A stretch of DNA of 31,467 bases. Source: an uncultured Mycoplasma sp. (GTDB taxonomy: Bacteria; Bacillota_I; Bacilli_A; RF39; UBA660). Within the stretch, counting starts at the first letter, position 1; each line of letters begins with the position of its first letter. The translations under genes were made by a program, and so were the position numbers. The notes under the pieces were generated by a model. It ran no database searches. It worked only from the letters and a program-made list of their open reading frames with translations, and was not told the DNA's origin. Below, one piece after another: positions 12,918-15,453 of the stretch. The stretch covers positions 1 through 31,467 of the forward strand of contig CAZBFY010000001.1 in the NCBI GenBank assembly GCA_964491445.1, written 5' to 3'.

Positions 12918-14972
12918 ATGAGTAAGAAATATGACTATGTATTACAACAGAATAATACTGATTGTGGTATAGCAAGTATTATGACAATTCTAATGTATTA
13001 TGGAATAAGACCATCAAGAGAAAAGATATTAAGTAAAGTGCATAAAAACCGTGATGGTTATACAGCATATGACTTAATAAAAATAAGTAAGTATTATAAA
13101 GTAGAGTCCTATGGTATAAAGTCAAATATTAGTAATATTAAAAACTTTCCAGTAGTAGCACATACTATAAAAGATGAGAATATGTTTCATTTTATAGTTG
13201 TACTAGAATATAACCCTAAAAAGAAATTATTAAAGATAATGGATCCTGCTTATGGAATAAAGACCATAACACAAGAAGAATTTGATAAAATTACAACAAA
13301 TATTTATTTAATATTTGATAGAAAGAAAAAGAAAAAAGTAAAAGATAAAAGATTTAAAAGAGAGATATTAAAGATATTTAAAACTAATAAAAAGATTATC
13401 TTAAAGACTATTCTTTTCTCCATAATATTTGTTTTATTATCACTAGTATTTAATTATTATTTAAAGACAATATTATCTTATAGTAATAGTATTTATTATG
13501 TTTTATATATATTTGTTTTTTTTCTAGTAGTAGTACTTTTAAAAGACATAGTAGACTATATAAAAAATAAGTTAATTATTAATTTAAATACTAAGATAGA
13601 TAAAGATATAACAAACAAAGTAACTAGTCATATATTAAATCTTCCTTACAAGTACTTCATTACTAAACCATCTGGAGAATTAGTAACTATTATTGAGGAT
13701 ATAGAAAATTTTAAAGAAATAGTAACTAAAGTGTTTGTCCTATCATTAGTAGATTTTATACTTATAATAGTAATAATAATTTATACGTGTATACTTAATA
13801 TTTATGTTGGTTTATTATTTGTTTTAATTCTAATCATTAATTGTATAATAACTAAAAAATTTCAATTTATTTTAAATCAAGCTTTTATAAGATTTAAAGA
13901 AACAAAAATAAATTATACTTCTTTTTTATATAGTTATTTATCTAGTTATGAAACAATAAAGAATTTAAATATAAGTAAGAAAATAGCTACTGTAATTAAT
14001 AATAAGTATGATGAGGCTTTAAAGTATGATAAAGAGTATAATAATAAGAATAATATTTATAGTTTATTAATAGCTTTATTAACAGATATATTTTATATAA
14101 TAGTAATATTTTTATCAGTAAATATTGCTATTAGAAATAATATAGAACTATTAGATATTGTATTATTTTCTTCTATCTTTTATTTAGTTATTGGTTTTAT
14201 GGGTAATATATCAGAGAGTATGCTTTTATATAAAATTTTTAATACCTCTTCTTATAGGATACTCGACTGTTTAGATGTAGAAGAAGAACCTCAAAACCAA
14301 ACTAAGTTTTTAAAAATAGATAATATAAGATTTCATAGAGTAAGTTATCATAATAATGATAAATTGTTGTTAAAAGATATTAATTTAACAATAAATAAAA
14401 ATGATAGAGTATACATAACTGGAGAATCTGGAATAGGTAAGTCTACTATGATGAAGATATTACTTAGGCATTATAAGTTAAGCCGTGGTAAGATATTAAT
14501 TGATGGGATAAATATAAATGATATAGAGTTATCTTTTATAAGGGATAATATAACTTATATAAGTCAGAATGAAACATTATTTCAAGGTACAATAAAAGAT
14601 AATTTAAGTTTAGTATCAGAAGATGATAAAAAAATAAAAGAAGTTTTAGATTTAACATTAGTTACACAGTTTCTAAATAATAATAATATATCTTTAAACT
14701 TTCTTATCGAAGAAGATGGTTCTAATTTAAGTGGTGGTGAAAGGAAAAAAATAGTTTTAGCAAGAGGGTTATTGCATTTTAAAAATGTACTTATTTTAGA
14801 TGAAGTATTTAATGAAATTTCTATTAAAGAGGAAAGGATAATACTTAAGAATATAATGGATAAGTATCCTGATAAAATAATAATAATGGTATCACATAGA
14901 GATAGTAATAAAGATTTATTTAATGTTGAATATCAACTTAAGGGGGATGGTGGTTTATATGAAATTAAATGA
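12918..14972 (+). CDS. Peptidase C39-containing ABC transporter (double-glycine peptide processing/export)
   Basis: QQNNTDCG (catalytic Cys), HFIVV (His), IMDPA (Asp); 6-TM domain; GESGIGKST, LSGGE, LILDE, SHR. Start ATG 12918 after GAGGAGG. Confidence 0.95.
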   Translation: MSKKYDYVLQQNNTDCGIASIMTILMYYGIRPSREKILSKVHKNRDGYTAYDLIKISKYYKVESYGIKSNISNIKNFPVVAHTIKDENMFHFIVVLEYNPKKKLLKIMDPAYGIKTITQEEFDKITTNIYLIFDRKKKKKVKDKRFKREILKIFKTNKKIILKTILFSIIFVLLSLVFNYYLKTILSYSNSIYYVLYIFVFFLVVVLLKDIVDYIKNKLIINLNTKIDKDITNKVTSHILNLPYKYFITKPSGELVTIIEDIENFKEIVTKVFVLSLVDFILIIVIIIYTCILNIYVGLLFVLILIINCIITKKFQFILNQAFIRFKETKINYTSFLYSYLSSYETIKNLNISKKIATVINNKYDEALKYDKEYNNKNNIYSLLIALLTDIFYIIVIFLSVNIAIRNNIELLDIVLFSSIFYLVIGFMGNISESMLLYKIFNTSSYRILDCLDVEEEPQNQTKFLKIDNIRFHRVSYHNNDKLLLKDINLTINKNDRVYITGESGIGKSTMMKILLRHYKLSRGKILIDGININDIELSFIRDNITYISQNETLFQGTIKDNLSLVSEDDKKIKEVLDLTLVTQFLNNNNISLNFLIEEDGSNLSGGERKKIVLARGLLHFKNVLILDEVFNEISIKEERIILKNIMDKYPDKIIIMVSHRDSNKDLFNVEYQLKGDGGLYEIK

Positions 14973-15096
14973 TAAACAATTAAAACAAGTAAAAGGCGGA
15001 GTATCTGCTTGGGCAGTTATAGGAGCTTTAGCAGGCTTAATATTTGGATTTGGAGCATTAGATGGATATGTTAGACCAATTAAATGTCGCAAATAG
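14959..15096 (+). CDS. Double-glycine leader peptide A (class IIb bacteriocin-like), absent from ORF track
   Basis: MKLNDKQLKQVKGG|VSAWAVIGALAGLIFGFGALDGYVRPIKCRK*; consensus LxxxxLxxVxGG leader; GxxxG-rich core; overlaps transporter stop. Confidence 0.9.
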   Translation: MKLNDKQLKQVKGGVSAWAVIGALAGLIFGFGALDGYVRPIKCRK

Positions 15097-15256
15097 GCTT
15101 AGTAATAAAGAACTAAAAATGATTACTGGAGGTCTTAAATTCTCTGGTACTATATTAAATGCCTTTACTTCAGCTTTTAAAGTTCTATATGGTTTTGGAC
15201 AAGAATTTGGTTCTTCAATTCGTCGTATTAGAAGAAAAAAACTATGCAGTTTTTAG
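15062..15256 (+). CDS. Double-glycine leader peptide B
   Basis: ...LSNKELKMITGG|LKFSGTILNAFTSAFKVLYGFGQEFGSSIRRIRRKKLCSF*; GGAG 6 nt before ATG 15062 (exact start uncertain). Confidence 0.85.
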   Translation: MDMLDQLNVANRLSNKELKMITGGLKFSGTILNAFTSAFKVLYGFGQEFGSSIRRIRRKKLCSF

Positions 15257-15405
15257 ATAAAATAAAACAAATAAATAAACAAAATTTAATAAAAGTATCT
15301 TTATTTATTATATTAATACCAATTATTATGAAAATACTATATTTTATTAATATACTAGGTATAGCTTTTGGTTCATATTTAAGAGAAATTTCAAATTGTA
15401 TATAA
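15244..15405 (+). CDS. Leaderless 53-aa membrane peptide C, paralogous to the core of peptide B, absent from ORF track
   Basis: MQFLDKIKQINKQNLIKVSLFIILIPIIMKILYFINILGIAFGSYLREISNCI*; overlaps B stop; shares G-x-x-FGS-x-[IL]-R-x-I and terminal Cys with B; lies before the operon terminator. Confidence 0.7.
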   Translation: MQFLDKIKQINKQNLIKVSLFIILIPIIMKILYFINILGIAFGSYLREISNCI

Positions 15406-15453
15406 GACTAGTACTTGATTATATAAGTAATCAAGCTAGTCTTTTCATTTTTT
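15405..15453 (+). terminator. Intrinsic terminator of peptide operon
   Basis: agactag...cttgatt / aatcaag-ctagtct stem followed by T tracts. Confidence 0.8.

Follow-up and report, generated by a model that had tools for sequence, protein, structure and literature searches.

A two-peptide cassette of the class IIb type as a probable core feature of a family of gut Bacilli with reduced genomes

Class IIb bacteriocins, among them lactococcin G, plantaricin EF/JK and lactacin F/lactobin A, are encoded by adjacent genes with double-glycine (GG) leaders that form one operon with an ABC exporter carrying a C39 peptidase domain. Their mature peptides are unmodified, cationic or hydrophobic chains of 30 to 40 amino acids (aa), each with a GxxxG motif, and a gene for a small membrane protein lies directly downstream. 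Bacteriocin loci are normally patchy in distribution, mobile and fast-evolving. Exporters with the same architecture are represented by PCAT1 with its cargo CtA in Clostridium thermocellum and by ComA with ComC in streptococci. Described here is a cassette made up of such an exporter and three short peptides (A, B and C), found in a 31,467-nucleotide (nt) stretch of DNA, referred to as the window, from an uncultured Mycoplasma sp. (GTDB lineage RF39; UBA660). The window is contig 1 (CAZBFY010000001.1) of a ~1-Mb, 24% GC metagenome-assembled genome (MAG) that is 78% complete (GCA_964491445.1; G000). In the reading favored here, which commands about half of our confidence, a class IIb-type two-peptide system appears to have turned into a vertically inherited, near-universal, single-copy core gene set of a family of gut Bacilli with reduced genomes.

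The exporter (positions 12918 to 14972, plus strand; 684 aa) is, to judge from its sequence, an intact peptidase-containing ABC transporter of the PCAT1/ComA type, with an N-terminal C39 protease, six transmembrane helices and an ATPase domain. All three domains are recognized by Pfam (Peptidase_C39, 1.3e-27, 96.7 bits; ABC_membrane, 9.6e-23; ABC_tran, 9.2e-28), and residues 2 to 666 give a full-length alignment to PCAT1 (4RY2; E = 2e-66), ComA being the second-best relative of solved structure. The catalytic Cys (in TDCG) and His (in HF) fall in register with those of PCAT1. On these grounds, the intact processing exporter proposed in an earlier note on this DNA is confirmed. The gene start is preceded by a GAGGAGG ribosome-binding site. 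Because the protein stays below the NCBIfam subfamily equivalog cut-offs (258 against 853 and 245 against 524), it is regarded as a divergent member of the PCAT class. Homologues were found in 14 of 16 genomes of the genus (54 to 68% identity) and in 33 of 36 genomes of the family (28 to 38%). When the whole 78%-complete genome was scanned, A and B were the sole open reading frames (ORFs) with GG leaders.

Peptide A (14959 to 15096, plus strand) is encoded as a 45-aa precursor, composed of a 14-aa GG leader (MKLNDKQLKQVKGG) and a 31-aa mature part that contains GxxxG (G32-G36), Pro40 and Cys43 and ends in IKCRK. The 64-aa precursor of peptide B (15062 to 15256, plus strand) has a 24-aa leader ending in KELKMITGG and a 40-aa mature part with GxxxG (G46-G50), a pair of arginines and Cys62, the last residues being KKLCSF. 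The genes are tightly packed, with overlaps of 14 nt between the exporter and A, 35 nt between A and B and 13 nt between B and C, and each of the three window peptides contains exactly one Cys, as had been pointed out before. The leaders of both A and B align with that of CtA. Compared with the PCAT1/CtA and ComA/ComC systems, whose exporter architecture and catalytic residues it shares, the cassette differs in that its cargo is a fixed pair of membrane-type peptides and that no ComDE-like sensing module is adjacent.

Database comparisons assign A to a known kind of peptide. A scores 29.8 bits against TIGR03949, the lactobin A/cerein 7B model (curated cut-off, 21.5 bits), which is also matched by 26 of 29 relatives of A; by this measure, A belongs to that class IIb model. 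Homologues of A in Bacilli or Mollicutes MAGs are publicly annotated as “class IIb bacteriocin, lactobin A/cerein 7B family,” and other public names for homologues of A or B are limited to “hypothetical protein” or “bacteriocin.” No characterized two-peptide bacteriocin matched either A or B, the generic TIGR03949 being the sole model of this kind to match, and only A. Matches of the peptides to the BlpC and EntF induction-factor models were confined to the leaders, and when B and C were looked up in the ESM Atlas, the hits were clusters without a name or generic families of GG-leader peptides.

For comparison, 95 loci from ~90 genera were collected, each with 1.5 to 4 kb of flanking sequence, and residue conservation was assessed from an hmmalign alignment of the 95 A-B pairs. 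In A, the GG of the leader is conserved at 98%, the GxxxG glycines (profile positions 33 and 37) at 100%, P41, located four residues past GxxxG, at 97% and C44 at 99%. In B, the corresponding values are 99 to 100% for GG, 100% for GxxxG (profile G36 and G40) and 99% for C52, and the Arg-Arg pair that follows GxxxG is kept at 89% and 94% (the second being R45). The conservation of the terminal Cys, on which the earlier note had made its interpretation depend, thus extends to both peptides. The most conserved columns are those of the mature parts, GxxxG and Cys, and not the leaders alone. The spacing is equally constrained: 7 residues separate the second glycine of GxxxG from the Cys in 92 of the 94 A peptides measured, and 12 residues in 93 of the 94 B peptides. 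The mature part contains one and only one Cys in 85 of 95 A peptides and in 90 of 95 B peptides.

The mature peptides range from 31 to 40 aa in length. Mature A is strongly hydrophobic (median grand average of hydropathy, 1.17), and mature B is cationic, with a median net charge of +4 (range, 0 to +7) that reaches +7 in the window, where B is also amphipathic (hydrophobic moment of 1.35 over the first 20 residues). Properties such as these are typical of membrane-active peptides.

The distribution of the cassette was followed with a profile of B, which matched 191 of 200 high-quality genomes of the order, from 97 of 98 genera, nearly always as one copy per genome. In samples drawn at the class and phylum levels, B was found in 51 of 51 and 16 of 16 members of the family, respectively. 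Outside the family, it occurs in G042, the one genome sampled from a second family, and was not found in the 28 other families of the class, except for three leader-only matches of 23 to 27 bits in family f12. The order exporter, A, B is invariant in all 95 loci, with A always directly before B, and this adjacency, together with the similar numbers of database clusters at 90% identity (1757 for B and 1623 for A; 493 for B at 50% identity), supports the pairing of the two peptides. The locus is therefore not patchy, a possibility that had been raised earlier, and its distribution suggests vertical inheritance within the family, as does the presence of rpsU or yqfC as the next gene downstream in 52 of 92 informative loci.

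The peptides also appear to evolve slowly. Within the genus, identity ranges from 62 to 73% for A, 48 to 77% for B and 54 to 68% for the exporter, so that the peptides are at least as conserved as the protein that would export them. A within-species comparison of contigs from four metagenomes, a small sample, showed ~21 single-base differences in the exporter gene and 1 in the 447-bp peptide region. This single difference is synonymous in A and alters residue 10 of the B leader, leaving the mature peptides unchanged; in this small sample, the pattern points to purifying rather than diversifying selection.

A few genomes depart from the common state. The only visibly damaged cassette is that of locus L037 (genome G034), where A is cut before its Pro-x-x-Cys end and B is missing; the ORFs that follow directly downstream may belong to a mobile element, one of them showing, as judged by eye, a ParA-like N-terminal motif. 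Two genomes of the window's genus, G002 and G008, yielded no exporter, no B and no YqfD match, the region being either unassembled or lost as a block.

Peptide C (15244 to 15405, plus strand; 53 aa) has no GG leader and consists of a basic N-terminus, one long hydrophobic stretch predicted to form a Pro-containing transmembrane helix, a GxxxG-S-x-L-R motif and a terminal Cys within the ending SNCI. Among its aligned homologues (n = 37), G39 and G43 are invariant, R47 is conserved at ≥90% and most have a Pro in the membrane helix. A C-like gene overlaps the stop codon of B in 47 of the 95 loci, and the Cys is kept in 34 of these. Because a profile-profile comparison (hhalign) aligns the last 31 columns of C and B with each other (probability, 94.6%; E = 7e-8), C is considered to be a membrane-anchored relative of the C-terminal module of B, and the positive-inside rule would place this module at the outer face of the membrane. 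A position overlapping the stop codon of the upstream peptide gene is the usual slot of immunity genes. C is accordingly placed as a candidate self-protection (immunity) or partner protein, and the earlier statement that the cassette has no recognizable immunity gene was too strong.

A second membrane protein, 110 to 160 aa long and unrelated to C, is encoded between the exporter and A in 43 of the 95 loci. It occurs in L023, L025 to L029, L034, L036 and 35 further loci and is absent from the window's genus; it has one N-terminal transmembrane helix, a Lys/Asn/Ile-rich domain that is probably extracellular and no Pfam match. This protein might be a minimal accessory or immunity protein.

The cassette shares with class IIb systems all the features named at the outset, that is, adjacent GG-leader genes in one operon with a C39-ABC exporter, seemingly unmodified cationic or hydrophobic peptides with one GxxxG each and a small membrane-protein gene directly downstream, and A passes TIGR03949. 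It differs from them in several respects. Whereas class IIb loci are strain-variable and accessory, this one is a near-universal, single-copy, syntenic part of the family core; each peptide has an invariant Cys at a set distance from GxxxG; B falls outside the known families; the protein proposed for immunity is a copy of the B tail fixed to a membrane anchor and is missing from half of the loci; and there are neither regulator genes nor an HlyD-type accessory protein. In agreement with the earlier note, domain searches of the DNA around the cassette in the window detected neither a modifying enzyme nor a two-component system nor an accessory gene of the HlyD type. The stretch from dnaE to ybeY in the window and the related loci that were read are likewise without the modifying-enzyme gene expected of a lanthipeptide or other modified RiPP cluster.

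Under the favored reading, the exporter would recognize the double-glycine leaders of A and B, its C39 domain would cut after GG and the mature peptides would be exported, activities that are expected from the domains present. Outside the cell, the hydrophobic A (31 aa) and the cationic, amphipathic B (40 aa) may insert into a membrane and, on the model of lactococcin G and the plantaricins, pack as parallel helices through their GxxxG motifs. Such packing would bring the two cysteines, located 7 and 12 residues past the motifs, together near the basic tails. The A-B pair would permeabilize or otherwise disturb the target membrane, the most likely target being neighboring bacteria. C, which appears to present a membrane-anchored copy of the GxxxG-S/T-x-x-R(-Cys) module of B, would, where present, most likely protect the producer by occupying A or the site of A as a decoy partner. 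A complex prediction for mature A plus B, based on custom alignments, gave a score of 0.02, which is evidence for neither side.

The layout of the locus bears on whether the cassette acts with its neighbors. By prediction, it is closed before yqfC by a strong intrinsic terminator (15404 to 15456, plus strand), a 17-bp stem with a 2-nt bulge followed by UUUUCAUUUUUUU. The hairpin (15404 to 15443) together with its U-run has a folding energy of -17.4 kcal/mol (z = -4.86), equalled by none of 200 shuffles. The previously proposed order of exporter, A, B, C and terminator is thus borne out, with every ORF in place and a terminator that folds. Downstream follow yqfC (YabP family), yqfD, a VanZ-like gene, ybeY, dgkA, cdd, era and recO, which form the usual housekeeping cluster of Firmicutes.

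Among the 92 loci informative for the downstream neighbor, the next gene is rpsU in 40 and some other gene in 40; in the remaining 12, mainly loci of the window's genus, the cassette is directly followed by yqfC/yqfD. The ancestral position of the cassette was most likely upstream of rpsU-yqeY-yqfC-yqfD, and the contact with yqfC in the window most likely reflects the loss or relocation of rpsU in this genus; a tblastn search detected no S21 (rpsU) gene in the 78%-complete window assembly. A functional operon link to yqfC-yqfD is rejected in view of the terminator and of the 40 loci in which rpsU follows the cassette. The adjacency is probably incidental and positional only, and in the favored reading it would be a leftover of the old insertion site.

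Several observations weigh against the bacteriocin reading. Near-universal, single-copy, slowly evolving peptides are unlike the usual bacteriocins, which are engaged in an arms race. Beyond its leader, B matches no Pfam or NCBIfam family, and searches of solved structures with the A and B profiles recovered leaders only (the CtA peptide and the carnobacteriocin B2 precursor), leaving the mature parts unmatched. The sequencing runs that hold the locus are gut DNA metagenomes, with no RNA run among those listed. Furthermore, C is missing from 48 of the 95 loci, and both C and the accessory protein are missing from 29; the frequent lack of a dedicated immunity gene is odd for a pair that kills close relatives, and the reading is at its weakest in that half of the loci lack C. 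Loci without any immunity candidate are easier to reconcile with a self-directed role, in which exported A and B (with C, if present) would re-insert into the membrane of the producer for a housekeeping or developmental job, for example, controlled permeability, envelope remodeling, mother-cell lysis or spore-related steps. Such a job would explain retention in a 1-Mb genome and would agree with core-gene behavior (191 of 200 genomes, a single copy and conserved mature sequence) and with the nature of C as a membrane-anchored, partner-like protein. YqfC/D and Spo0A, the latter on contig C45 of the window genome, are encoded, and the ancestral site adjoins rpsU-yqfC-yqfD. However, a terminator lies between the cassette and yqfC, 40 of 92 loci have unrelated genes downstream, the cassette is missing from spore-forming families in other parts of the class, and no GG-leader peptides are known to serve the producer's own membrane; a self-directed role is considered unlikely. 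A conserved target, such as epithelial or protozoan membranes, would also account both for the conservation of the peptides and for the many loci without an immunity gene; on such membranes, the pair could act as a host- or eukaryote-directed cytolysin or modulator that frees nutrients for an auxotroph that depends on its host. The lineage is strictly gut-associated, with ~1-Mb genomes, and a role of this kind would fit the scavenging of envelope precursors predicted to be needed by related uncultured orders (PMC10868615). Nevertheless, a GG leader combined with GxxxG is the architecture of the antibacterial class IIb type, and neither structure nor Atlas searches revealed similarity of the peptides to known cytolysins, so that this explanation is judged quite improbable. 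A more inclusive proposal, put forward as speculative and considered rather unlikely, is that the cassette is an indispensable, lineage-defining secreted tool: a Cys-coupled pair would open foreign (bacterial or host) membranes for nutrients or act on the cell's own envelope, with self-protection by the membrane-anchored partner mimic.

Signaling has to be weighed as well, given that the earlier note considered a signaling or developmental role as plausible as an antimicrobial one and took conserved peptides at a fixed locus to favor signaling. In this explanation, A and/or B would act as secreted ComC/BlpC-type pheromones, and the kinase that senses them would be encoded away from the cassette; two candidate histidine kinases are found in other parts of the genome. 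ComC and BlpC, too, are exported by PCATs, the exporter has ComA as its second-best match of solved structure, the leaders match the BlpC and EntF induction-factor models and the locus is kept at a fixed site. Conservation is borne out, but the step from it to signaling is not followed, because the mature peptides of 31 to 40 aa are hydrophobic or cationic with an invariant GxxxG, because it is their mature parts that are conserved and because no regulator lies alongside. A kinase or regulator gene was seen neither in the window nor in the 1.5- to 4-kb flanks of the 95 loci, and the mature peptides are long and either transmembrane-like or strongly cationic and amphipathic. Pheromones of the ComC/BlpC class diversify into pherotypes, and obligatorily paired peptides are atypical of pheromones, whereas here the mature region, with GxxxG and Cys, is conserved over ~90 genera. 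A pheromone role is therefore unlikely, and of all the explanations considered it is the least probable.

The fixed cysteines allow two interpretations within the class IIb reading: A and B could be joined extracellularly as a covalent disulfide heterodimer, as suggested earlier, or each could need a free thiol. The first is compatible with the single Cys of most mature A and B peptides and with the fixed distances from GxxxG. Roughly estimated, the spacer would measure ~18 Å in both peptides, as three helical and four extended residues in A and as twelve helical residues in B, which would put both cysteines about equally far past the parallel contact and could let them lie side by side. A further point in its favor is genome G019 (locus L029; database cluster P0210), the only complete genome locus without Cys, where it is missing from A and B alike. 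This joint loss is, however, a single case: in a search for a second one, only G019 and its cluster P0210 qualified, P0165/L120 being ambiguous. L120, a 1.4-kb ENA contig that may be chimeric, pairs an A that has the Cys with a B whose replaced tail lacks it, and C keeps its Cys in just 34 of 47 loci. Moreover, the habitat is the anoxic gut, and a survey of 40 high-quality genomes of the family, in which positive controls were detected, found no DsbA-like (PF13462), DsbB or VKOR gene. Of the suggested disulfide, the geometry thus remains plausible and the enzymes expected to form it were not found; the heterodimer is regarded as possible but doubtful, and it is no more likely than a free thiol with a function of its own or a bond to the target. 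A free thiol of this sort has a precedent in lactococcin B, a GG-leader bacteriocin whose activity reportedly depends on a single reduced cysteine. Lactococcin B is unlike the cassette in being a single-peptide, plasmid-borne and strain-specific bacteriocin. In locus L029 of G019, A is also preceded by an additional short ORF with a GG leader.

The class IIb-type kind is already known, A being so labeled by automatic annotation in public MAGs. What appear to be new are the near-universal, single-copy and largely syntenic place of the cassette in the family core, the B family, the fixed single Cys in both partners and the partner-mimicking C; a literature search returned nothing relevant on this cassette in RF39/RFN20-type lineages or on disulfide-linked two-peptide bacteriocins. 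Retention as a single copy in ~96% of the sampled high-quality genomes, across ~97 genera with ~1-Mb genomes, argues for an indispensable function. The lineage is uncultured and represented by MAGs labeled “Tenericutes,” “Mollicutes” or “Bacilli bacterium” recovered from the guts of humans, chickens and other animals. For such a lineage, a conserved secreted pair offers a synthesizable handle on its ecology and a lineage marker. The cassette is also a test case for the role of a single invariant cysteine in two-peptide systems, and a membrane-anchored mimic of one partner would be a possible new immunity principle. If the cassette is indeed an indispensable tool of the lineage, two-peptide systems of this type would gain their first core-genome example, along with the new immunity principle.

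Upstream of the exporter, a short conserved element (12869 to 12911, plus strand) reads TTAGGT-N17-TAATTATATATAT and is followed by the GAGGAGG ribosome-binding site. When the 260 nt 5' of the exporter gene were aligned for 10 loci of the genus and 1 of another genus, only TAGG, TAATTATAT and GAGGAGG were kept, and the remaining intergenic DNA could not be aligned. The element, which follows a T-run/A-run, probably serves the cassette as a promoter or operator; it is unlike a good sigma-70 consensus and could be recognized by a different sigma factor or by a regulator. A consensus promoter scan performed at chance level (35 sites against 34.7 expected), and the same scan missed the terminator.

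The DNA farther upstream contains a short dnaE, a RelB/YafQ toxin-antitoxin pair (11410 to 12004) and three short minus-strand ORFs that resemble gene remnants. The first of these (12126 to 12350) has a weak, sub-threshold guanylate-kinase hit (E = 4e-4), and the other two (12355 to 12558 and 12640 to 12810) have no Pfam hit. Because of the toxin-antitoxin pair and the remnant-like ORFs, the upstream flank does not qualify as core DNA; of the setting described earlier, in otherwise core DNA directly before yqfC-yqfD, the position before these genes stands and the core character of this flank does not.

Finally, public protein sets contain 100- to 107-aa “A-B fusion” proteins (P0001, P0019, P0023, P0025, P0119 and L120:150-392). 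In several of these, a W marks the A-B junction, and one look-up gives a translation only “with_TGA=W.” The fusions are probably artifacts of gene calling with the Mycoplasma code (table 4) on MAGs labeled Mollicutes; the window itself is correctly read with table 11.

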